Origin: Candidatus Electronema halotolerans
GTDB taxonomy: Bacteria > Desulfobacterota > Desulfobulbia > Desulfobulbales > Desulfobulbaceae
Assembly (NCBI GenBank): GCA_942493095.1
Contig: OW818675.1
Coordinates: 1,350,001-1,382,000 of the forward strand
Length of the DNA stretch: 32,000 bases
Direction of reading: 5' to 3'
The translations under genes and the position numbers were made by a program. Below, one piece after another: positions 3,143 through 25,784 of the stretch. How positions within the stretch are numbered: the stretch's first letter is position 1; each line of letters opens with the position of its first letter. The notes beneath the pieces are model-generated. The model was not told where the DNA came from. It saw only the letters and a program-made list of their open reading frames with translations, and did not search any database.

Positions 3143-6100
3143 TTACCGCTCCCTGCCCTTGCCGCTGTTTCTCCGCCTCGCCTCCGGCCTCTGCATCTGC
3201 AAGGCCAGACACTGCGGCCCGAAAGAGGCTTGCAGCTGCTGGCAGAAGTCCGGGCAGGGCCTGACTTTCAGGTCAGGATGCGGCTCAATGTCAGCCTCGC
3301 CTCTGCCGTCAAAGTGGAGCGTGACCTTGACCGGCACCTTGCCATGAAACTGATAGAGCATATCCTTCAGCTCAGTGAGCTGCTGGCGGCTGGTGCGGGC
3401 TGCTTGAATGGTGATCACCGCTTGCGTGGCGAAGTCCTCCATTGCCTGCGTCAAGGGCATAATATCGTCAGCAATGATGTTTGCCCCGCGCTCGCTGACC
3501 TGCACCGCGCCCTGGACGATCAGCGGCTCCTCGCTGCCAAGCAGGTGGCCGCAGCGGGCAAAGGTCTCCGGGAAGACCACCACCTCAACGCTGGCCGTCA
3601 TGTCCTCGACAGCGGCAAAAGCCATCAGGTCGCCCTTCTTGGATTTATGCTCCTTGTAGCGCTGCATCAGGCCGCCGACCCGCACCACTTGGCCATCGCG
3701 CCAGTTTTCCTGCTGCTCAATGTCCGCGTTGGCAACCATGCGAATGAAGTCAATCACGCCGTCCAGCGGGTGGCCGGTGAGGAAGAAGCCGACCGTCTCC
3801 TTTTCATAAGACAACTTGGTCAGCTGCGGCCATTCCGGGACATCAGGCAGCTTGATCTCCGCCGCCGGATTGCCGCCCTGCTTTGGCCCGGCCAAGGCAA
3901 AAAGATTCATCTGGCCGCTCATCCGGTCGCGCTGCACGCTCTTGGCCTGCTCAATAACCTTGTCCAAGACCTCCATGAGCTGCGCCCGCTTGGCCTTCAG
4001 CGAATCAAAAGCTCCAGCCTTGATTAGGCTCTCCAAGACCTTGCGGTTGACCCGGCTCGAATCAATCCGTCCGCAGAAATCCATCAGTGACTTGTACAGC
4101 CCGCCCTTGCGCCGCTCCTCGATGACTGAATCCAAGGCGGCCCCGCCCACGCCTTTGACCGCAGCCAAGCCAAAACGGATCCGGTCGCGGATGACCGTGA
4201 AGTCGTGGTAGGACTCGTTGATGTCCGGCGGCAGCACCTCAATGTTCATCTGCCTGCATTCGTTGATGTACTTCACCACCTTGTCAGTGTTATCCACGTC
4301 GCAGGAGAGGAGCGCGGCCAAGAACTGGGCAGGATAGTGGGCCTTGAGATAGGCCGTGTGGTAGGCCACCAAGGCGTAGGCGGCGGAATGGGAGTTGTGG
4401 ACAATCAGGCCGTCCGCAACAAAGTTGTGATCCTCCTCCACAGTGAGGTCAAAGGTCGGCTGCTCGCCACGCGCTTCGATGGAAACGACTCTGTCCCAGA
4501 AGATGTCTGAGTCGGCCAGTGCAGCCAGTCGGCTGGAGGCGAAGAACTTTGCCAATTGGGCTAAGGTTGAGCGGCGGAAGCCCAGCTTGACGGCGGAACC
4601 GTTACCCATGAATTCCTTTATGCACAGCCCTGAGCGCGCCTCCAGCTCGCGCCACGTCAAGCCCGCCTGCTGCCGTTCTTCATCCACCCAGTTGCGCACC
4701 TCGGCAGGGATAGTGTCTTCTAAGGGCAGGCCGGGTGGCAAAATGTCAAGCTGTTCAGCCCAGCACGTGCCGTCCGGTGCGGGCAGGTGGCGCGGCGCGG
4801 CTATTCTGTCCCCAGCTTTGAGGTCGCCGAGCAGGGTCCAGCCGTCAAGAGTGCGGAAGGGGTGATTGGCGGTGGCAGTGATCTGATGCCCCTGCGCAGT
4901 CCGCAGCTCAAAGACTGGCTTTTGCCCATTGTCGATGACATCCAGCACCTTGCGCGGACGCAGCTTATAGTCCTCGCCCAGCGCATGAACCATGAAAGCA
5001 CGCGGATTGCTGTGCAGTTCGCCGAGCGTGGTCTGCTCGCCTGTCTCCGCATCAAGTATCCGGGTGGAGCCGACCAAGCACTTATTGAATCCATAAGCCG
5101 CGAACTTAGCCATCAGGTCAAAGACATACGCCGCCTTTTCCTCCGGGATGCCGTTGTTCTTGGCTCCGGCCATGAACTTGCCGCGCTCGGCCTCCATCAC
5201 CTCCGGGATCTTCTTGCCCATCGCCCGGCGGAGGATGTCCGCATCCCCAAGACTGTAGGAAGCAAGGATGTTGGAAATTTTCATCACCTGTTCCTGATAG
5301 ACGATGACCCCGTAGGTCTCCCGCAGCACCTCCTTGATCTGCGGCAGCGGGTATTCGGCAGGGCGACGGCCATGCTTGGTGTCAACAAACTGATCCACCA
5401 TGCCGGAGTCAAGCGGGCCAGGCCGGTACAGGGCGACAAGGGCGACCAAATCCGTGAACTGCTCCGGGGCCATCTTGATCAGCAGCTCGCGCATGCCGTC
5501 GCTTTCGAGCTGGAACACGCCCAAGCTGTTGCCTGCACAGAGCAGATCATACGTCTTGGGATCGTCGGTCGGCAGCTTGTTGAGCTGCACCTCCAGGCCG
5601 ATGTCCTGCTTAATCAGCTTGAGAGCGCGGTCTATCACGGTCAGGGTTTTGAGGCCGAGGAAATCGAACTTGATCAGTCCGGTCATCTCGGTGTACTTCA
5701 TGTCATACTGGGTGATGATCTCCTTTTCCGGGCCAATGCAGACTGGCAGGTACTCCACCATCGGCTTGGGCGAGATCACCACCCCGGCGGCATGGGTTGA
5801 TTTATGCCGGGCCAACCCCTCCAAGGTCTGCGCCACCTTGAGCAGCTTTTCAATCTCTGGCTGCCTCATCTCCTCGCGCAGGCGCGGCTCGTTGGCAATG
5901 GCCTTTTTCAGGGTGATCTTCAGCTCTTCCGGCACCAGCTTGGCAATCCTGTCCACCTGCGGCAGGGGAATCTCCAGCACCCGGCCCACGTCGCGCAAGA
6001 CCGCCCGCGCCTTCATCGAACCATAAGCGACAATTTGGGCCACGTGCTCGTTGCCGCCGTACTTCTGGCGCACGTAGTCTATCACCTCATCCCGCCGGTC

Positions 6101-7330
6101 TTTGCAGAAATCCACGTCAAAATCAGGCATGGAGACCCGCTCGACATTGAGGAAGCGTTCAAAGAGCAGGCCGTAGGGGATAGGGTCGATGTCGGTGATG
6201 GCCATGCAGTAGGCGGCTAGGCTGCCTGCTCCTGAGCCACGGCCTGGTCCTGTAGGGATGCCTTGACTCTTGGCCCAGTTGATGAAGTCGGCCACGATCA
6301 GGAAATAGCCCGCAAAGCCCATCTTCTGGATGACCTTGATCTCCATCTCCAGCCGCTCGCGGTACTCCGCTTCCAGTTCCGGGCCGACCTCCTGCAATTC
6401 GCGCAGCAGGGCCAGCCGCTTTTCAAGGCCGTCGCGGCAGGTGTGCTCAAACAGGCTCTCCAGCGACTCGCCTTTCGGCACCGGGAAGACAGGGAAGTGA
6501 TGTTCGCCAAACTTGAGCTGAAGGTCGCAGCGTTCCGCGACTTCCATCGTGTTGCTCAGGGCTTCCGGGCACCAGCTAAACTGACGGGCCATCACCTCTG
6601 GCGGCTTAAAATACAGCTCGTCAGTGGAGAATTTGAAGCGGCCCGGATCGCTGATCACCCTGCTGGTCTGGATGCAGAGCAGCACCTCGTGGGCGTAGGC
6701 TTCGTCCTGATTGAGGTAGTGGCAGTCATTGGTGGCCACCAGCTTGATGCCGAGGTCGTGGCCCAATTCCTGCAAGCCTGCGTTGACCCTCTTCTGCTCC
6801 GGGATGCCGTTCTCCTGCACCTCGAAATAGAGCCTGTCGCCGAAGAGCTGCTGCAATTCCAGAGCCTTTTGTCGGGCGGCATCCATGCCGCTGTGACTGA
6901 TCAGCCAGGGCACCTCGCCGTGCAGGCAGGCGGAGAGGGCAATCAGTCCTTCATGGTGGCTGGCGAGCAGCTTGCGGCTGATGCGCGGCTTGTAGTAGAA
7001 ACCCTCGGTCTGGGCGACAGAGGCCAGCTTCATCAGGTTGCGATAGCCGTCCTCGTTCATTGCCAGCAGGACGAGGTGGAAGTTGTGGCCCGCGCTCTTG
7101 TCGTGAATAGTATGGTCGGTCTCGGCAATGTACAGCTCGCAGCCGACAATCGGACGCAGGTCGGCCTTCTTGGCCTTGGTGTAGAACTCCAGTGCGCCGT
7201 ACATGGCCCCGTGATCCGTGACCGCAACGGCGTTCATGCCATATTCTTTGGTCTTCTCAATCAGGTCGTTGATGCGGATCGCACCATCGAGCATGGAATA
7301 CTGGGTATGGACGTGCAGGTGGGTGAACAT
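3143..7330 (-). CDS. dnaE: DNA polymerase III alpha subunit, interrupted by a mini-intein
   Basis: ORF 3143..7483. The start was trimmed to ATG 7330, giving the canonical PHP-domain N-terminus MFTHLHVHTQYSMLDGA. Full-length DnaE motifs follow (..GRGSGAGSLAAYCMAITDIDP.., ..FDFLGLKTL.., ..GFNK[intein]SHSAAYALVAYHTAYLKAHYP..). It is 1395 aa including the intein and about 1166 aa without it. Confidence 0.95.
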   Translation of the reverse strand: MFTHLHVHTQYSMLDGAIRINDLIEKTKEYGMNAVAVTDHGAMYGALEFYTKAKKADLRPIVGCELYIAETDHTIHDKSAGHNFHLVLLAMNEDGYRNLMKLASVAQTEGFYYKPRISRKLLASHHEGLIALSACLHGEVPWLISHSGMDAARQKALELQQLFGDRLYFEVQENGIPEQKRVNAGLQELGHDLGIKLVATNDCHYLNQDEAYAHEVLLCIQTSRVISDPGRFKFSTDELYFKPPEVMARQFSWCPEALSNTMEVAERCDLQLKFGEHHFPVFPVPKGESLESLFEHTCRDGLEKRLALLRELQEVGPELEAEYRERLEMEIKVIQKMGFAGYFLIVADFINWAKSQGIPTGPGRGSGAGSLAAYCMAITDIDPIPYGLLFERFLNVERVSMPDFDVDFCKDRRDEVIDYVRQKYGGNEHVAQIVAYGSMKARAVLRDVGRVLEIPLPQVDRIAKLVPEELKITLKKAIANEPRLREEMRQPEIEKLLKVAQTLEGLARHKSTHAAGVVISPKPMVEYLPVCIGPEKEIITQYDMKYTEMTGLIKFDFLGLKTLTVIDRALKLIKQDIGLEVQLNKLPTDDPKTYDLLCAGNSLGVFQLESDGMRELLIKMAPEQFTDLVALVALYRPGPLDSGMVDQFVDTKHGRRPAEYPLPQIKEVLRETYGVIVYQEQVMKISNILASYSLGDADILRRAMGKKIPEVMEAERGKFMAGAKNNGIPEEKAAYVFDLMAKFAAYGFNKCLVGSTRILDAETGEQTTLGELHSNPRAFMVHALGEDYKLRPRKVLDVIDNGQKPVFELRTAQGHQITATANHPFRTLDGWTLLGDLKAGDRIAAPRHLPAPDGTCWAEQLDILPPGLPLEDTIPAEVRNWVDEERQQAGLTWRELEARSGLCIKEFMGNGSAVKLGFRRSTLAQLAKFFASSRLAALADSDIFWDRVVSIEARGEQPTFDLTVEEDHNFVADGLIVHNSHSAAYALVAYHTAYLKAHYPAQFLAALLSCDVDNTDKVVKYINECRQMNIEVLPPDINESYHDFTVIRDRIRFGLAAVKGVGGAALDSVIEERRKGGLYKSLMDFCGRIDSSRVNRKVLESLIKAGAFDSLKAKRAQLMEVLDKVIEQAKSVQRDRMSGQMNLFALAGPKQGGNPAAEIKLPDVPEWPQLTKLSYEKETVGFFLTGHPLDGVIDFIRMVANADIEQQENWRDGQVVRVGGLMQRYKEHKSKKGDLMAFAAVEDMTASVEVVVFPETFARCGHLLGSEEPLIVQGAVQVSERGANIIADDIMPLTQAMEDFATQAVITIQAARTSRQQLTELKDMLYQFHGKVPVKVTLHFDGRGEADIEPHPDLKVRPCPDFCQQLQASFGPQCLALQMQRPEARRRNSGKGRER
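4394..5080 (-). mobile_element. 229-aa mini-intein in DnaE, between GFNK and SHSAAY
   Basis: Starts CLVGSTRILDAETG (block A), contains TATANHPFRT (block B, TxxH) and ends FVADGLIVHN with a +1 Ser. Removal restores the universal DnaE motif YGFNKSHSAAYA. I see no LAGLIDADG or HNH motif in the roughly 100-aa central linker. Confidence 0.85.
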
Positions 7331-7521
7331 GAGGAAAAAGAAGATAGAAAAAACTGGAGAGACAAGCGGCGGTCTCAAGAAAAACTTCTCAGATAGCCGC
7401 AGAGCAATTCCGCACAGACATGAATCTGGCAAAATCCAGCACCTGTCTTGCCACGTCATCCGGCAGGACGGCAACCTTGTCAAGACCCGGATGATTGCAT
7501 TCCGGCTTTTTAAACAAATCA

Positions 7522-9276: not shown

Positions 9277-9386
9277 CTCACCGCCTGCCACGTATCCGTG
9301 CCAATCTGCACCGGACTGGTTTTTTGTTCGGTTGTTCCGTCACCCAATTGACCGTAAGAGTTAGCCCCCACGCCCAGAGACTGCCG
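9277..9386. repeat. Internal 110-bp repeat copy A, identical to 10450-10560 except for a C5 versus C6 run
   Basis: Direct base-by-base comparison of the two segments. The only difference is the C-run at 9365-9369 (C5) versus 10538-10543 (C6). Confidence 0.9.
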
Positions 9387-10449
9387 TCAGCTTTCAGGGC
9401 AACAGTATGATCCCATCCAGCACTTACCGCCTGCCACTGATCTGTGCCGATTTGCACCGGACTGGTTCTTTGTTCGGTTGTTCCGTCGCCCAACTCTCCG
9501 TCATAGTTCGATCCCCACGCCCAGAGGGCACCGTCTGACTTCAGCGCAACAATATAATAACCACCAGCAGCCACCGACTGCCACGTATCTGTGCCGATTT
9601 GCACCGGACTGCTTTTGTTCCCCGTTGTTCCGTCTCCCAACTCTCCGTCATAGTTCCATCCCCACGCCCAGAGTGTACCGTCCTGCTTCAGCGCGACCGT
9701 ATGAGAAGAACCCGCAGCCACCGCCTGCCACGTATCTGTGCCGATTTGCACCGGGTTGCTTTTGTTCTCCGTTGTGCCGTCGCCAAGCTGGCCAGAGTGG
9801 TTCCATCCCCACGCCCAGAGTGTACCGTCAGCTTTCGGGGCAACTGTGAGAATATCTCGCACTCACCGCCTGCCACGTATCCATGCCGATTTGCACCGGG
9901 CTGCTTTTGTTCTCCGTTGTGCCGTCGCCAAGCTGGCCGTACAAGTTCCATCCCCACGCCCAGAGTGTACCGTCAGCTTTCAGGGCAACTGTGTGAGAAT
10001 ATCTCGCACTCACCGCCTGCCACGTATCCATGCCGATCTGCACAGGGCTGCTTTTGCGTCCTGTTATTCCATTGCCTATCTGACCGGAATTGTTTTGTCC
10101 CCACGCCCAGAGCGTACCGTCCTGCTTCAGGGCAACTGTGTGTGAGAACTTGCGGCCACTGCCTGCCATGTATCCGTGCTAATCTGCACCGGACTGCTTT
10201 TGCTCTCCGTTGTGCCGTCGCCGAGCTGTCCGTAGCTGTTGTATCCCCATGCCCAAAGCGTACCGTTCTGCTTCAGGGCCAGTATGATAACCCCCAGCTA
10301 TCACGCTCTGCCAGTTGTTGTCCGTGCCGATCCGCACCGGACTGTTTTTATTGTCCGTTGTGCCGTCACCAAGCTGGCCACAGTAGCTGTGTCCCCACGC
10401 CCAGAGCCTGCCGTCAGCTTTCAGGGCAACTGTGTGGACAATCCCTGCG

Positions 10450-10560
10450 CTCACCGCCTGCCACGTATCCGTGCCAATCTGCACCGGACTGGTTTTTTGT
10501 TCGGTTGTTCCGTCACCCAATTGACCGTAAGAGTTAGCCCCCCACGCCCAGAGACTGCCG
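10450..10560. repeat. Internal 111-bp repeat copy B, partner of 9277-9386
   Basis: See copy A. Confidence 0.9.
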
Positions 10561-11272
10561 CTATCCTTCAGGGCAACTGTGTGGAGAGATCCTGGCGCTG
10601 ACTGGCTCGCCACGTTAATATCTGTACTGACCTTCACTGGGCTGCTTTGCTCTCCGTCAGGCTGTCGCCGAGCTGTCCGTAGCTGTTGTATCCCCACGCC
10701 CAGAGTGTGCCGTCAGCTTTCAGGGCAATTGTGTGAGAACCACCAGCCGCCACCGCCTGCCACGTATCTATCCTGATCTGCACCGGACTGTTTTTATCGT
10801 CCGCTGTGCCGTCGCCGAGCTGTCCGTAGCTGTTGTATCCCCACGCCCAGAGGTGGTCGTCAGCTTTCAGGGTAACTGTGTGAGAATATCCCGCACTCAC
10901 CGACTGCCACGTATCCGTACCGATCTGGACTGGCCTGTTTTTATCGTCCGTTGTGCCGTCACCAAGCTGGCCATAGTAGTTGTGTCCCTCACGCCCAAAG
11001 CGTGCCGTCATCCTTCAGCACAACAGTGTGATCATCTCCGGCAGCCACTTCAACAACAGCGGCCTGCGTTTCCTGCGCAAGGCCAAACAGCGCAAGCACG
11101 CCGAAAAAAAGATAATATTTCCAAAGCCTCACTGCATTCTCCTGTAAAACAAGGTATTGTAAGAGCAGGCAATCTAACGCCTGATTTGTTGCAATTTTTT
11201 TTCAAAGCCGACTATCACAGTCGCTTCTGCCAACCAGCAAACCAATTTTTTCCAATTTTGACAAGCAAAAAA

Positions 11273-20655: not shown

Positions 20656-21033
20656 ATGAAATGTTCAGAGCTTGCCCAAGAAGCTATTGACAAGGTGCGG
20701 CAGCAGCGGACAGCAGGCCGTCGGCAAAAAACAGCTCGCGTCGTCAAGAAAGGCTGCAGCTCTGTCGGAAAAACAGCAAGTTTTACCAAAGCAGTTCTGG
20801 CCGCAGCAGGAATATTCTTTCTCTCATCTTTTGTCTTTGTGTCATGCGCAACATTTCTTGCCTCATTTGAAAAACAGAGACAAGCAGTCCACAGCACGGC
20901 AAGAACACCGGCTGTCCGGACAAATACAAGCAATTCAGCACCTGTCAAGAAACGCTATGGGCAAGAAATATACAAATGGGTTGATGCAAATGGTGTTGTC
21001 CATTTGAGCAACACGAAAGATGAAGAATACTAA
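20656..21033 (+). CDS. Small membrane protein with a DUF4124-like C-terminus
   Basis: TM AVLAAAGIFFLSSFVFVSCATFL, then C-terminal IYKWVDANGVVHLSNTKDEE. Confidence 0.45.
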   Translation: MKCSELAQEAIDKVRQQRTAGRRQKTARVVKKGCSSVGKTASFTKAVLAAAGIFFLSSFVFVSCATFLASFEKQRQAVHSTARTPAVRTNTSNSAPVKKRYGQEIYKWVDANGVVHLSNTKDEEY

Positions 21034-22972
21034 CAAGTCAAACAACAGCAAATTCAATTTTATGCAATTAGACAATATCCTCTGGCTGCCGGACGAAACC
21101 CAGGCTGTCCTCTTTGACATGGATGGGGTGCTCTTGGACAGCCTTGGTCTGGACTTCACTCTCTGCAATGAGCTGCTCCGCAAGAATCTTGGCCGAGAGG
21201 CGCAGCTCTCCAAAGACTTCATCCGCTCCATCTTTGCCTATCATCCGCCGGAATTCTGGCGGAGAATCTTTGCCTTGATCGAAGAACAGGACGGCATTGC
21301 CGCTGCGGATGCGGTGCGGCAGACTGTTCTTGATGAATACAATGCGGCCCGCAAGGAGGCTGTCTTTCCGGTCAATCCCGGCATCGTTGCTCTTCTTGCC
21401 GCCTGCAAGGAACAGCGGCTCAAGACAGCCGTGGTCTCCAACAATCCAACTGAGGATGTCTGCAATATCCTCAGCCAATCCGGCATTGCCGAATACTTTG
21501 ACTTGATTGTCGGCAATGATCTGCACAAGCTCCAGCCAAAGCCCGCGCCTGACACCTACATCTATGCCGCCAACATGCTGGAAATGCTGCCCGGTAATTG
21601 CGCAGTGATTGAGGATTCGCTGCTCGGTGCGGAAGCAGGCGGCAAGGCAGGCTGCTTTGTGGTTGGAGTGGCCACCGGCGGCACGAGTTTTGCCGACTTG
21701 GAGGCCTCAGAACAGACCCGGCGGGTTTATGCCTCATTTCATCCCAATCAGCTTGTCCTCCAATTCGGCGATGTGACCCAAAAGCGCCTGCATACGCCGA
21801 ACGACTTTGTCAGTCATGCGATTGAGCACATTGCTTGGCGGATGGGCTGCGGCATTGAGCTGTTCTGGAACAGCAATGACTGGCCGCAGCTTGGTCTTGC
21901 CCTAGGCCGTTGCATTGCCAATCTGCCGCAGCAGGCTGCCATGGCTGCGGCCTTGGGCATGATTGATGACGGCAGCGCGGAAGTGACCATCACGTTGGCA
22001 GATGAGCCGGACTTCCTGATTGAGACGGTGGAGCAGCTTGATCCGGCCTGGTTCTTCAGCCTGCGCTGCGAGCAGGTTGAATCGAGCGCGCCGCTGCTGG
22101 AGCTGCTGCGCGGCCTGACGCAAGGGCTGCAAGCACGGCTGCATGTCCTTGTCTGCGGGGTGGAAGACCCGCATCATGCCTGGGAGGGCGTGTTCCGGGC
22201 CATCGGCATTGCCTTGGGTAAAATCTTCGCGCCAAAGGCAATGCCTCCAGCAGCGGCGACGCAGCCGAATAAGGCTCCGGCGCATGGCATCATGGTTGAG
22301 GAATTGACCGACCAGACGGCGGCGGTTGTCCGCAGCACCGCAGAGAGCCGGGTCCGGGTGGCAGTGAACTGCGCCGGGCACTGGCCGGGCTGCTGCAGCT
22401 TCAAGGTTGGCCCGTCCATTCAGGTCTCTGCATTCGGCGGCCTGCTGGAGGCAATGGCCAAGGAGGCCGGTTTCACGCTGTCGGTTGATTTCACGGCGGA
22501 ACAGCTCAGTTCCAGCCATGTGGTGATGGAAGATACCGGCTTGGTCTTGGGCCGTGCCCTCAAGGAGCTACTGATCCGGCGCATGAACGGCGCAGGCGTG
22601 AACGGCGCAGGCAGCAGCATTCAGAGCGAGACCGACATGGCCAGCCAGCCGCTCAGGGTCGGGGTGAGCGTGGAGGGCCGCAAGTTTGTCAAGTTCGTGC
22701 CCTTTGCTGAAGATTGGACCGCGTTCCGCAAACATTTCCTGCTTGGCCAGGATGTCTATGGCGGCCTGTTCTCAGAGGACTTGGATGACTTTCTCGACGG
22801 CTTGGCAGGCGGGCTGCATTGCAGCATTGTGGTGCATGTCCGGGAGCGCGTTGCCCCGGCAGAAGGCTGGCTCCTGCTCTTCCAGCAGCTCGGCAAAGCC
22901 TTGCACGAGGTCTTTGCGGAGAATCCGGCCCGGAAAGGCGTGCCGCCCGGTGTGAAGGCGACGCTGGCCTAA
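21020..22972 (+). CDS. HAD-superfamily phosphatase fused to two tandem degenerate imidazoleglycerol-phosphate dehydratase-like domains
   Basis: 650 aa. HAD motifs are VLFDMDGVLLDS, AVVSNN and VIEDSLLGAEAGGKAG. Unit 1 (about aa 255-405): FVSHAIEHIAWRMGCGIELF..GVEDPHHAWEGVFRAIGIALG. Unit 2 (about aa 433-650): AAVVRSTAESRVRVAVN..SSSHVVMEDTGLVLGRAL..GVPPGVKATLA. An alternative start is ATG 21062. Confidence 0.65.
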   Translation: MKNTNKSNNSKFNFMQLDNILWLPDETQAVLFDMDGVLLDSLGLDFTLCNELLRKNLGREAQLSKDFIRSIFAYHPPEFWRRIFALIEEQDGIAAADAVRQTVLDEYNAARKEAVFPVNPGIVALLAACKEQRLKTAVVSNNPTEDVCNILSQSGIAEYFDLIVGNDLHKLQPKPAPDTYIYAANMLEMLPGNCAVIEDSLLGAEAGGKAGCFVVGVATGGTSFADLEASEQTRRVYASFHPNQLVLQFGDVTQKRLHTPNDFVSHAIEHIAWRMGCGIELFWNSNDWPQLGLALGRCIANLPQQAAMAAALGMIDDGSAEVTITLADEPDFLIETVEQLDPAWFFSLRCEQVESSAPLLELLRGLTQGLQARLHVLVCGVEDPHHAWEGVFRAIGIALGKIFAPKAMPPAAATQPNKAPAHGIMVEELTDQTAAVVRSTAESRVRVAVNCAGHWPGCCSFKVGPSIQVSAFGGLLEAMAKEAGFTLSVDFTAEQLSSSHVVMEDTGLVLGRALKELLIRRMNGAGVNGAGSSIQSETDMASQPLRVGVSVEGRKFVKFVPFAEDWTAFRKHFLLGQDVYGGLFSEDLDDFLDGLAGGLHCSIVVHVRERVAPAEGWLLLFQQLGKALHEVFAENPARKGVPPGVKATLA

Positions 22973-23086: not shown

Positions 23087-23434
23087 TCAGAAAGTAATAA
23101 CTGAATATCCTTGGGTAATATAGTCAGCCATTGCAGGGTGGCCGGACATTGTGCCGATGAGCTGGATATCTTCCGCCTCAATTTCCTCGGCAACGCCCAG
23201 CTTGGCAGAGCAGGCTCGGCAGGCACCAAGGATCAGCCCCTTTCCCTTGGCCTCGGTGTAAAGCTGATGCAGAAAATGCTCAGGTTTGGCCATTTCCGGC
23301 ACCAGCTTGACCGCCTCGCCCTCCAAGACAATTTTCCCGCCCAAGCCCTGCGCAGCCATGTTCAGGCTGTTGAGCAGGACATGGATAAAGCACATCGGTT
23401 CGCCCTTGAAGGCGAACAGCACTGTTTCACTCAT
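23087..23434 (-). CDS. DsrE/DsrF-like family small protein
   Basis: 115 aa. MSETVLFAFKGEPMCFIHVLLNSLNMAAQG..LILGACRACSAKLGV.. The assignment is from fold-typical motifs only. Confidence 0.45.
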   Translation of the reverse strand: MSETVLFAFKGEPMCFIHVLLNSLNMAAQGLGGKIVLEGEAVKLVPEMAKPEHFLHQLYTEAKGKGLILGACRACSAKLGVAEEIEAEDIQLIGTMSGHPAMADYITQGYSVITF

Positions 23435-23528: not shown

Positions 23529-25583
23529 TTACCTTCTGCCAAGCACATCCTCGCGGACGCTGTTAGCCACTTTGACCGCAATGTTGACAATCTCCGGCTT
23601 CACGCCCAGCTCTTCCAGAGCCTCGCGGAAGTGTTGGAGGATGATGTCAAAGTGCGTGTCATTGAGACCTTTCTCTTCGACCAAGCGGGCATGAACTGCT
23701 TTCAGAGCCCGGCCTGTGTAAGACTGGCCGCTGCCCAAGGCGAAGTTCATGAAACCCTTCTGCATCCGCCGCTGGGTGGCCATGTCAACGCCTTCAAAGA
23801 AGTAATTGACACGCGGATCAGCCATTACTTTGTCATAAAAAAGATCAACGGCCTTGCTGACCGCCACCTCGCCGCCAATTGTTTCATAGAAGGCAGCGGC
23901 GGCAGGTCCCTGCGGCAGGATGTCAGCTCGTTCCTGCACCGGTGCTACTGAAGGCTTGCCCTTGGTCTTGAAGGTCACGGTCTTGTCGATCATGTCAACC
24001 ACAGGCAGCGGATTCGGCACCTCTTTCAGCCCGTAAATCTCCTCCAGATCAAAGCCTTTGGGCATGTTGGCAAAGATTTTCTCAGCCAGCTTCTGGCCTG
24101 CGACCCGGAAACGGAGTTTGGCATGGAGGGTGAGGGTATGCTCATGCGGGTCATTATGCAGCTTGGTCAGAGAGGAGTAGTACACATCCTTGTAGCCCTT
24201 GGGCGGGATGATGTCATGCCGGGTGAAGGAAACCAGCTTCCACGGATCAGCCGTGAACTTCATGTTGATATCCGCGCCCTCGGAGTTGAACATATAGGTG
24301 TTGCCGTCCAGCTCGCCGTCTGGCTTGATAAAGCCGCTTTTCAGCACTTCCCTGCCGTCCTCATCCGTAGCTGTCACTTCCAGCCACATCTCCCGGACAT
24401 TGGTCAGCGAGGTGGGCAGGGCATGACCGCAGCGCTTGTTCCAAATCCGCACTTTAATCTTGCCCAACAAGCCGGTCTCATCGTAGATCGGCTCGATCTC
24501 CATCTCTGCGGCAGCTTGGAGCCGGGCCACAGCCATATCATACTTTAGCTGGGCATTGGCGGCCAGCTTGGCATCGCCCATTTTCTCAGCCCGCAGCTTG
24601 TCCAGCAGATACATGGTGAAGTTGGCACCGTTGAAGAAGTGGCGGTACTCGCTCCGCTTGGGCTTCTGGAAGGTGTCAGCAGAACGGATGAAGGTTGGAA
24701 TATCGACCATGTGGCAGTCCTGACACTGAATGCCCTTGATCGAATAGATGCCCTTCTTCCATTCGTTGTAGGTGTGCTCAATCGGGAAATGCTCTTCGTA
24801 ATGGAAGACCTGATGGCAGCCGCCGCACAGCTCGCCGCGCAGATGCAATGGCGACTCAATGCACTCATGGAAGCCGCCGCCGCAGCCGTCATAATTCGGG
24901 AAGGGGCCGTACTTGGTGCGGACATTGTTGCCGTTCTTGTCCTTGTAGCCAGGCGACAGGACATACGAACCATTCTCCGGCTCATGCGACGGAGTATCCC
25001 AGTGGGTGTGCGTTCTGATGGAATGGCAGACATCGCAGGACACGCCAGCCTTGGCCAGGTCGGTGAGCTTGGACATGTCCAGCTCCTCGCCCCGTTTCGG
25101 CCCCAGCCCGGAAACCGTGGCAGCGGCAGTGTGGCAGCCCTCGCACTGGTTGCGGATGCCTTCGCCCACATCCTTGATGCCCAAGATCAGCTCGCCGAGA
25201 TAGATGGGATCCCGGAACGCCTGCTCGTGCATGGAACCCTTCCAGTCTTCAAACTGCTGCGGATGGCAGCCGCCGCAGGTCATGACCGAAGGCACCTCAA
25301 AGGGCACGCCCTTGTCCTCAAAGGCGATGTTGGATGGGTAAAACTGATACTTCTGCTTGAGATAAGCGTGGTTGTACCGGGCGTAGGGAACATTCCAGAT
25401 ATTGGCTAACTGCTTGTCCACCTCGTAGGGATTAGGCGGCGCGTTCATTGTCGCCTGCGAAGGACTGTAGTTGGGCTGGGTTGCGCTGACTTGGCCCTGC
25501 TTCTGGGCAAAGACCGCAGCCGCATTCAAGGCCAGCCCTGCCGCTGTCAGACAGAGTACCAGCCCCATCCGCTTCTTTTTCAT
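23529..25583 (-). CDS. Periplasmic pentahaem c-type cytochrome fused to a C-terminal group-I-like truncated haemoglobin domain
   Basis: ATG 25583 has GGAGGAG 8 nt upstream. Signal peptide MKKKRMGLVLCLTAAGLALNAAAVFAQ. Five CxxCH motifs (CGGCH, CEGCH, CDVCH, CGGCH, CQDCH). The last 120 aa or so read FYETIGGEVAVSKAVDLFYDKVMADPRVNYFFEGVDMATQRRMQKGFMNFALGSGQSYTGRALKAVHARL..THFDIILQHFREALEELGV, which is trHb-like. Confidence 0.85.
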   Translation of the reverse strand: MKKKRMGLVLCLTAAGLALNAAAVFAQKQGQVSATQPNYSPSQATMNAPPNPYEVDKQLANIWNVPYARYNHAYLKQKYQFYPSNIAFEDKGVPFEVPSVMTCGGCHPQQFEDWKGSMHEQAFRDPIYLGELILGIKDVGEGIRNQCEGCHTAAATVSGLGPKRGEELDMSKLTDLAKAGVSCDVCHSIRTHTHWDTPSHEPENGSYVLSPGYKDKNGNNVRTKYGPFPNYDGCGGGFHECIESPLHLRGELCGGCHQVFHYEEHFPIEHTYNEWKKGIYSIKGIQCQDCHMVDIPTFIRSADTFQKPKRSEYRHFFNGANFTMYLLDKLRAEKMGDAKLAANAQLKYDMAVARLQAAAEMEIEPIYDETGLLGKIKVRIWNKRCGHALPTSLTNVREMWLEVTATDEDGREVLKSGFIKPDGELDGNTYMFNSEGADINMKFTADPWKLVSFTRHDIIPPKGYKDVYYSSLTKLHNDPHEHTLTLHAKLRFRVAGQKLAEKIFANMPKGFDLEEIYGLKEVPNPLPVVDMIDKTVTFKTKGKPSVAPVQERADILPQGPAAAAFYETIGGEVAVSKAVDLFYDKVMADPRVNYFFEGVDMATQRRMQKGFMNFALGSGQSYTGRALKAVHARLVEEKGLNDTHFDIILQHFREALEELGVKPEIVNIAVKVANSVREDVLGRR

Positions 25584-25784
25584 AATCAAAAGCTCCTCCT
25601 TTCCTCTGTTGGTTGGTAAAAAAAATGAAACGCCACGAGTCATACATGAGGCTATTATAGTGGAACAGACGGCAAAATCAAAGATGTGGGACAATTTTTT
25701 TTGCCTTTGCAGGCATCCGCAGGGAAGTTGGGCTGTATCTTCTTAGTTCTTCGTAACAATGCCCGATGCAGCCTTCGGAATCAT

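Follow-up and report, generated by a model that had tools for sequence, protein, structure and literature searches.

In a 32,000-nucleotide (nt) stretch of the Candidatus Electronema halotolerans genome (assembly GCA_942493095.1, contig OW818675.1, positions 1,350,001 to 1,382,000 of the forward strand; hereafter "the window"), we identified a gene that probably encodes a non-canonical bifunctional enzyme of histidine biosynthesis. Its product joins an N-terminal phosphatase domain of the haloacid dehalogenase (HAD) superfamily, subfamily HAD-IA, to two imidazoleglycerol-phosphate dehydratase (IGPD; EC 4.2.1.19) folds that divide the canonical catalytic residues between them. This division is conserved throughout the protein family, and the family is linked to histidine (his) genes. 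We therefore regard the protein as an odd HisB, not as an enzyme for a new substrate. Databases label the gene only as a "HAD-IA family hydrolase".

The open reading frame (ORF) of 650 amino acids (aa) lies where a first-pass annotation of this DNA had placed it (Table 1). That annotation described a HAD phosphatase followed by two IGPD-like units, a layout that we recovered by Pfam, profile-profile alignment, and Foldseek. Pfam assigns HAD_2 to residues 30-217 (E = 2e-24) and IGPD (PF00475) in two stretches. Scanned singly, both units pass the PF00475 gathering score of 27, unit 1 (aa 255-405) with 28.5 bits and unit 2 with 36.2 bits. We used hhalign to compare the family's unit columns with a canonical IGPD set (Arabidopsis IGPD1 and IGPD2, E. 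coli, and Pyrococcus), and obtained matches of 96.7% probability for unit 1 (aa 231-408; E = 5e-10, 169 columns) and 99.0% probability for unit 2 (aa 432-649; E = 2e-17, 192 columns). Because these profile matches run end to end, each unit represents a whole IGPD fold, not a fragment. The profile match of unit 1 to unit 2 (87%, with 22% identity) is weaker than that of either unit to canonical IGPD. The proposed division into two units thus stands, with the start of unit 1 corrected: it had been set about 24 residues too late, as the degenerate first strands begin near aa 231. The start codon is uncertain, since most homologs (636-637 aa) begin at the residue equivalent to a second in-frame ATG at 21062. 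An upstream ORF encoding a DUF4124 protein (20656-21033, + strand) overlaps the ATG at 21020 by 14 nt.

An AlphaFold model of the full-length protein (pLDDT 90.3, pTM 0.88) matches HAD-IA phosphatases in Foldseek, and no solved structure spans the whole architecture. As HAD matches dominated this list, we modeled the tandem part (aa 228-650) separately (pLDDT 90.7, pTM 0.91). All 29 matches of the tandem model at E ≤ 0.001 are IGPD crystal structures, with target-normalized TM-scores of 0.69-0.86 (for example 4mu0, TM-score 0.85, root-mean-square deviation 2.7 Å). Each unit shows the IGPD fold, a four-helix bundle between two four-stranded sheets with internal duplication. The linker between the units falls below a pLDDT of 50 at aa 411-422 in the full-length model and at aa 413-422 in the tandem-only model, and both its length and its sequence vary across the family alignment.

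The chains that build a canonical IGPD active site have been assigned from crystal structures. One metal, Mn1, is bound by E173, H47, H169, and H74, and the other, Mn2, by H170, H145, H73, and E77 (Bisson et al. 2015; PMC4509728, Table 2). In Arabidopsis numbering, chain A contributes H47, H169, H170, E173, K177, H55, and D108; chain A' contributes H73, H74, E77, and H145; and chain C contributes R99, R121, and the Ser/Lys of the C-loop (Rice et al. 2018; PMC6029752). Witek et al. 2024 (PMC10978614) agree with these assignments. The sites adjoin the molecular 2-fold axes of a 24-mer with 432 symmetry (PMC6029752). We had also considered a metal site spanning 4-fold-related subunits, and dropped this idea because the sites flank the 2-fold axes.

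We mapped the canonical positions onto 113 family members through the hhalign alignments (canonical residues in parentheses). In unit 1, nine residues are invariant in all 113 sequences: H266 (H47), E269 (D50), H270 (Q51), R274 (H55), D316 (D108), H385 (H169), H386 (H170), E389 (E173), and R393 (K177). The same unit is variable or carries a non-ligand residue at the positions of E21, H73, H74, E77, R99, R121, and H145, and it lacks the C-loop. Unit 2 presents the complementary set, again in 113 of 113 sequences: R438, T440, and E442 (R17, T19, and E21), H500 (H73), E504 and D505 (E77 and D78), R554 (R121), D590 (H145), and K646 (K201), joined by R638 (R193) in 110 of the 113. Unit 2 has lost H47, Q51, H55, H74 (V501), R99 (G529), H169, H170, E173, and K177. 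Across the two units, seven of the eight Mn-ligand positions are filled, by H266, H385, and E389 for one metal and by H386, H500, E504, and D590 for the other, and E442, D316, R554, R393, and K646 are invariant. Three canonical residues are missing from both units: H74 (V501; Val in 112 of 113 sequences), R99 (A311 and G529), and S199 (G644). The unit 1 equivalent of H145 is the variable E361 by spacing and by hhalign, which also rules out W344, a nearby candidate for this position.

The motifs on which the first-pass annotation had based its case are all present and map as it had claimed. In unit 1, SHAIEH holds H266 (H47), NDWPQLG stands at the position of the first HHxxE motif, and DPHHAWEGVFR contains H385, H386, E389, and R393 (H169, H170, E173, and K177). 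In unit 2, FGGLLE marks the lost H47, EGWLLLFQQ marks the lost second HHxxE motif, and SSSHVVMED contains H500 (H73), V501 (H74), and E504 (E77). Of the HHxxE motifs, then, unit 1 retains only the second (DPHHAWE) and unit 2 only a reduced first (SSHVVME). The annotation's proposal of complementary ligand loss holds across the family, as each unit retains what the other has lost in all 113 homologs. Its further idea of a single composite site is borne out by the published chain assignments (PMC6029752), which match the split exactly, with invariant residues on both sides: by their residues, unit 1 corresponds to chain A alone and unit 2 to chains A' and C alone.

From this pattern we infer catalytic activity and propose an intramolecular geometry and an oligomeric state. 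The two IGPD folds would form a covalent pseudo-heterodimer that mimics the 2-fold-related A/A' pair of the canonical 24-mer. Unit 1 would supply the chain A half of the site, with H266, H385, and E389 binding one metal and H386 the other, together with D316 and with R274 and R393 for the phosphate. Unit 2 would supply the chain A' half, with H500, E504, and D590 for the second metal and E442 as acid/base. The chain C elements, R554 and the C-loop K646, would come from unit 2 of a neighboring chain. The symmetry-related second site is degenerate, so that each chain would hold one imidazoleglycerol-phosphate (IGP) dehydratase site instead of two. Because the edge 2-folds of the octahedral group lie outside its tetrahedral subgroup, coset coloring gives a consistent 12-chain particle of 23 symmetry. 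We accordingly predict that the 24-mer is replaced by a 12-chain tetrahedral particle, built of homotypic trimers and holding 12 active sites. The HAD-IA domain at the N-terminus would dephosphorylate histidinol phosphate, step 8 of the pathway.

The degenerate faces of the two units are not featureless. New invariant residues occur there: an insertion of unit 1 ahead of helix 3 (aa 344-352, window 22049-22075) contributes W344, R349, E351, and Q352, with N286 and W288 elsewhere in unit 1 and H606 and W617 in unit 2. These residues suggest that the second site may have been converted to a new role. We can only speculate, and rather doubt, that it became an allosteric or feedback site or a surface for docking or channeling to the phosphatase and HisC, and that the clade-wide loss of His74 and Arg99 reflects a changed metal stoichiometry or preference and a variant of the Mn-coordination-switch mechanism. 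Ahead of helix 3, this family shares an acidic motif (VED, SED, or CEQ) with a clade of single-unit relatives described below.

The phosphatase domain has the features of HAD-IA enzymes, namely motifs I-IV (DxDG, S/T, K, and E/D-D) and an alpha-helical C1 cap after motif I, modeled here as four helices at aa 41-113. Its catalytic residues D33, D35, S140, E198, and D199 do not vary within the family, and at least 90% of sequences retain K174. Among NCBIfam models, the domain is nearest to beta-phosphoglucomutase (beta-PGM) and phosphoglycolate-phosphatase HAD-IA models. TIGR01509 exceeds its cutoff of 29.4 with 45.6 bits, PGMB-YQAB-SF stays under its cutoff of 153 with 83.7 bits, and all HisB equivalog models fall far below theirs. 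Foldseek matches to the HAD part include 2hsz, 4eek, and beta-PGM, at target-normalized TM-scores of 0.7-0.8. Judging from its fusion partners and operon context, the domain is most likely a histidinol-phosphate phosphatase (EC 3.1.3.15). HAD proteins have been recruited to this step more than once and independently, with differing caps (PMC10804674), and the step is the most frequent remaining annotation gap in amino-acid pathways, missing in 20% of prototrophs (GapMind 2026).

The family comprises at least 365 full-length homolog clusters at 90% identity and is present in 263 of about 185,000 species genomes. A database protein 100% identical to the window protein (P0001/P0121) lies on a 3.2 Mb contig. 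Hosts include Ca. Electronema and other Desulfobulbaceae, Desulfobacterales, Magnetococcales, several Alphaproteobacteria, Chromatiaceae, Actinomycetota, and the Thiotrichaceae Thioploca, Thiomargarita, Marithrix, and Parabeggiatoa. In the window, the neighboring genes (a NERD nuclease, the DUF4124 protein, a DsrE-like protein, a cytochrome-globin fusion, and TrmFO) give no clue to function, and we therefore turned to the loci of relatives, as the first-pass annotation had suggested. We searched 83 loci with E. coli His proteins and found an association with his genes. The flanks contain hisD at 56 loci and hisC at 38. Counting only genes on the same strand and within 2.5 kb, hisC and/or hisD accompany the target in 61 of the 83 loci; among the 58 loci whose flanks reach 3 kb or more on each side, the count is 45.

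Several loci are especially informative. One (L028) is a compact operon, TARGET-hisC-hisH-hisA-hisF-hisIE, in which the target occupies the usual position of hisB; its hisC and hisIE exceed equivalog cutoffs, and the operon contains no other IGPD and no other phosphatase. In Plantactinospora, Actinoplanes, and Streptomyces sp. YIM 98790 (L059, L069, and L070), the target lies inside his clusters that have no canonical hisB adjoining hisH. In Thioploca ingrica, hisD follows 81 nt downstream of the target. In a Thiomargarita variant (P0118), the protein carries an N-terminal extension that is itself HisC (TIGR01141, 334.5 bits against a cutoff of 276.55), so that this chain would join steps 6, 7, and 8. 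Actinoplanes sp. HUAS TT8 (L069:8485-14311) shows the order hisD-TARGET-hisC-hisD with two full-scoring hisD genes, which points to insertion of a TARGET-hisC-hisD cassette into a native his operon. After this cluster, on the opposite strand, comes a gene for a TPR-type regulator of about 900-1000 aa that is also conserved in Pseudonocardiales loci.

A further locus (L016) appears to record the replacement of a canonical gene. A canonical hisB is reduced there to its final ~42 codons (4509-4634), which follow TARGET-hisD immediately. This remnant is 57% identical to Arabidopsis IGPD2 (E = 4e-10), with HHxxE, FKAF, and PSTKG intact, and stop codons occur in all frames upstream of it. We read it as what is left of a canonical gene that the target has apparently replaced. 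In the roughly 1.4 Mb of flanking sequence that we fetched, we found no intact canonical IGPD. A separate 276-aa HAD-IA gene (L016:4647-5477) starts 9 nt past the stop codon of the relic and resembles TIGR01548 (80.6 bits, below the cutoff). This gene may represent the free-standing histidinol-phosphate phosphatase that the lineage had ancestrally. As the source of the fused HAD domain it is ruled out, with 29% identity over only 94 aa.

A protein search with the 41-aa relic returned only short fragments. Those on L084-L086 proved not to be relics: they belong to ordinary hisB-hisH-hisA-hisF operons that are frameshifted in noisy assemblies. When we used as query a full-length canonical IGPD rebuilt from L084, the best 120 matches were all gammaproteobacterial HisB proteins, at 71-76% identity. 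In these three loci (for example L084:7604-8198), the canonical hisB and many neighboring genes are split by frameshifts typical of uncorrected long-read assemblies, and the fragments carry tiny "IGPD" protein annotations in databases.

To trace the origin of the tandem, we searched its sequence alone against 1.84 billion representative proteins and obtained 167 clusters at E ≤ 0.001. Besides the fusion family, these include complete tandems without a HAD domain (417-440 aa), more divergent tandems, a rearranged tandem (P0382 and P0384), and a clade of single-unit proteins (205-232 aa). The single-unit proteins keep R17, T19, E21, H47, H73, E77, D78, D108, R121, H169, H170, and E173, and most keep K201. 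They carry H74 to V/L/T/I/P, R99 to G/A, and S199 to G, and in most cases H55 to R and K177 to R; these are the same departures from canonical IGPD as in the window protein. Two of them occupy the hisB slot of complete his operons, in the orders hisG-hisC-hisD-P0413-hisH-..-hisF-hisIE and hisD-P0398-hisG-hisH. Since this hisB-slot clade shares the substitutions, the composite site has the residue complement of one pathway-dehydratase site. The single-unit clade is the likely ancestral state, to judge by its residues. A plausible route would lead from a single-unit IGPD already lacking His74, Arg99, and Ser199 through tandem duplication and complementary degeneration to fusion with the HAD domain.

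The HAD-less tandems and the rearranged tandem also adjoin hisD. As HAD-less tandem forms occur beside hisD, the HAD domain is a separable module. In the rearranged tandem, unit one combines the E21, H73/E77, and R121 features with a unit 1-type HHxxE helix, and unit two combines the H47 helix, the D145 helix, and a dead helix 4 with a unit 2-type C-loop. The arrangement looks like one fold inserted into the other at the junction of strand 7 and helix 3.

How else might these data be read? The first-pass annotation had favored a neofunctionalized dehydratase/phosphatase acting on a different phospho-polyol, and one could extend this to an imidazole-like substrate unrelated to histidine synthesis. 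The site does differ from that of canonical IGPD at six positions (H74 to V, R99 to G, S199 to G, Q51 to H, H55 to R, and K177 to R), the family's patchy distribution resembles horizontal transfer, and the window copy has no his neighbors. We nevertheless judge this reading very unlikely, as relatives of the gene are embedded in histidine operons with hisH, hisA, hisF, and hisIE, whose products make IGP, a variant is fused to HisC, a decayed canonical hisB adjoins the gene in L016, and complete his operons exist whose only IGPD is a single-unit relative with these substitutions. The annotation's own alternative, "simply an odd HisB", describes the gene better. Might the protein instead be a second, condition-specific IGPD/phosphatase that works alongside a canonical HisB, perhaps suited to the metal supply of sulfidic or anoxic habitats? 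One metal site has just three protein ligands, and loss of His74 could shift metal preference. Sulfide gradients are the habitat of many hosts (cable bacteria, Beggiatoaceae, Magnetococcales, and Desulfobacterales), and the gene moves as a TARGET-hisC-hisD cassette, with Actinoplanes retaining two hisD genes. Yet the canonical hisB of L016 decayed after the target's arrival, the four loci with hisH-hisA-hisF have no canonical hisB in its usual place by hisH, the single-unit clade is the sole IGPD of its operons, and the family also occurs in aerobic soil actinomycetes; such a supplementary role seems to us quite improbable.

It is also conceivable, if on balance unlikely, that the tandem is the pathway dehydratase while the HAD-IA domain is a housekeeping sugar-phosphate or phosphoglycolate phosphatase, or a structural appendage. 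The best NCBIfam matches of the domain are models of the beta-PGM family and of phosphoglycolate phosphatase, none above its cutoff; HAD enzymes are promiscuous (PMC10804674); HAD-less tandems exist; and L016 has another HAD-IA gene right after its hisB relic. Against this, at least five phyla or classes have conserved the fusion, enterobacteria likewise have this step fused to IGPD, the HisC-HAD-IGPD variant unites three successive steps, the L028 operon offers no other phosphatase candidate, and the rearranged HAD-less form instead has an IMPase-family gene nearby. Tandem pairs of an enzyme and a pseudoenzyme are common in other families, which raises the question of whether one unit here forms homomeric sites and the other is a catalytically irrelevant scaffold. 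We find this barely credible: neither unit has a full ligand set for either metal (unit 1 is without H73, E77, and H145; unit 2 is without H47, H169, H170, and E173), and both partial sets are invariant in 113 of 113 sequences.

Several points do weigh against an odd HisB. Histidinol-phosphate phosphatase activity is not known from any HAD-IA enzyme of this type, and the NCBIfam equivalog scores of the HAD domain are all far below cutoff. His74, a ligand of one Mn in characterized IGPDs, is replaced by Val, and Arg99 and Ser199 by Gly. The resulting remodeled phosphate pocket could possibly mean altered metal use or kinetics, though R274, which replaces H55, may compensate for the lost phosphate binder. 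A figure legend in PMC4509728 reads "Glu21A", assigning to chain A a residue that our partition places in chain A'; a local pseudo-dyad relates D108 of chain A to E21 of chain A', in line with the family pattern. Finally, the window and 19 other loci have no his gene nearby, and the two hisD genes of Actinoplanes imply partial redundancy in some hosts.

Set beside known systems, the protein resembles the bifunctional HisB of E. coli and other gammaproteobacteria: both combine an N-terminal HAD-superfamily phosphatase with IGPD, both occur in his operons beside hisC, hisD, and hisH, and their presumed activities are steps 6 and 8. The two nevertheless differ in both parts, as the first-pass annotation had recognized. 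The HisB phosphatase is a capless HAD-IIIA domain of the TIGR01656/TIGR01662 type with a zinc loop, whereas the target has a HAD-IA domain with a four-helix cap, and HisB has a single IGPD fold where the target has two, each with half of the catalytic residues. The bifunctional HisB model NF003937 (PRK05446) scores 37 bits against a cutoff of 443, over the IGPD part only, which places the protein outside that family. With a different HAD subfamily and two IGPD folds, the fusion is an independent, convergent event. The known HAD-type histidinol-phosphate phosphatases (ecHisB-N, paHisN, and toHisN/nmHisN) share with the target the HAD superfamily, the Rossmann core, and motifs I-IV, but by cap architecture and best profile matches the target is of the beta-PGM/phosphoglycolate-phosphatase type.

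Canonical IGPDs (Arabidopsis IGPD2, M. tuberculosis HisB, Acanthamoeba IGPD; PF00475) share with the target the fold, seven of eight ligand positions, E21, D108, R121, and the C-loop Lys, as well as a site built from residues in chain A, A', and C roles. They differ in that the target spreads these residues over two non-identical folds of one chain. The target's Asp in place of His145 has precedent, since canonical gammaproteobacterial and Pyrococcus IGPDs also have a carboxylate there. In a survey of 535 IGPDs, every sequence had HHxxE in both halves (PMC7284861); the target breaks this rule of two (D/N)xHHxxE motifs per fold, with one HHxxE-type motif in each. The single-unit clade (for example P0413 and P0398) shares the clade substitutions and the his-operon context with the target, but has one fold with all retained residues and no HAD domain, and is presumably a homo-oligomer with all sites active. 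We found no literature on tandem or duplicated IGPDs or on such a HAD fusion, within a coverage that was incomplete and does not prove absence.

If our reading is right, the family offers a clean natural case in which duplicated copies degenerated in complementary ways within a homo-oligomer of high symmetry. What was a cage enzyme of 24 subunits seems to have turned into an obligate pseudo-heterodimer that has only half the number of active sites. Its conservation pattern also reads out independently which chain gives which catalytic residue. His74, Arg99, and Ser199 are treated as universal and are used in herbicide and antibacterial design. The target and the single-unit clade suggest that IGPD can serve the pathway without these three residues, and the fusion points to a further, HAD-IA type of candidate histidinol-phosphate phosphatase. 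Given the label "HAD-IA family hydrolase", automated reconstructions may wrongly call hosts deficient in hisB or hisN; those affected would include cable bacteria, large sulfur bacteria, magnetotactic bacteria, and some actinomycetes. The interest of the gene thus lies in enzyme evolution, IGPD mechanism, and pathway annotation, while its role in the pathway is likely ordinary.

Table 1. Coordinates of the window gene, its domains, and two variant architectures in relatives (unprefixed positions refer to the window)
Feature	Position	Strand	Residues	Basis or remark
Whole ORF: HAD-IA domain, IGPD unit 1, linker, IGPD unit 2	21020..22972	+	1-650	Alternative start 21062
HAD-IA phosphatase domain, beta-phosphoglucomutase/phosphoglycolate-phosphatase class	21101..21709	+	28-230	Pfam, Foldseek, motifs
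IGPD unit 1, putative "chain A" role	21710..22234	+	231-405	hhalign, residue mapping
Variable linker between units, disordered in models	22235..22312	+	406-431	Low pLDDT, variable alignment
IGPD unit 2, putative "chain A'" and "chain C" roles	22313..22969	+	432-650	hhalign, residue mapping, Pfam, Foldseek
Predicted trifunctional HisC-HAD-IGPD-IGPD fusion, Thiomargarita-related genomes	L002:3855-6830; also L029, L072		991 aa	
Rearranged tandem (P0382/P0384)	L091:7001-8185			Directly downstream of hisD; IMPase-family gene nearby

Other genes in the window have features of their own. Just downstream of the target, on the opposite strand, a 721-aa protein (23529-25694, - strand) joins multihaem cytochrome c domains (c554/c7/c3-like) to a bacterial truncated globin domain at its C-terminus; a small DsrE-like gene (23087-23434, - strand) lies between the two. 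DnaE, the DNA polymerase III alpha subunit (1446 aa; 3143-7483, - strand), is split by an intein, with Intein_splicing at aa 813-1030, between the finger and HHH domains. Two further ORFs (9278-9862 and 10179-10697, both - strand) contain RCC1-repeat segments, which suggests a disrupted or frameshifted RCC1-like gene.

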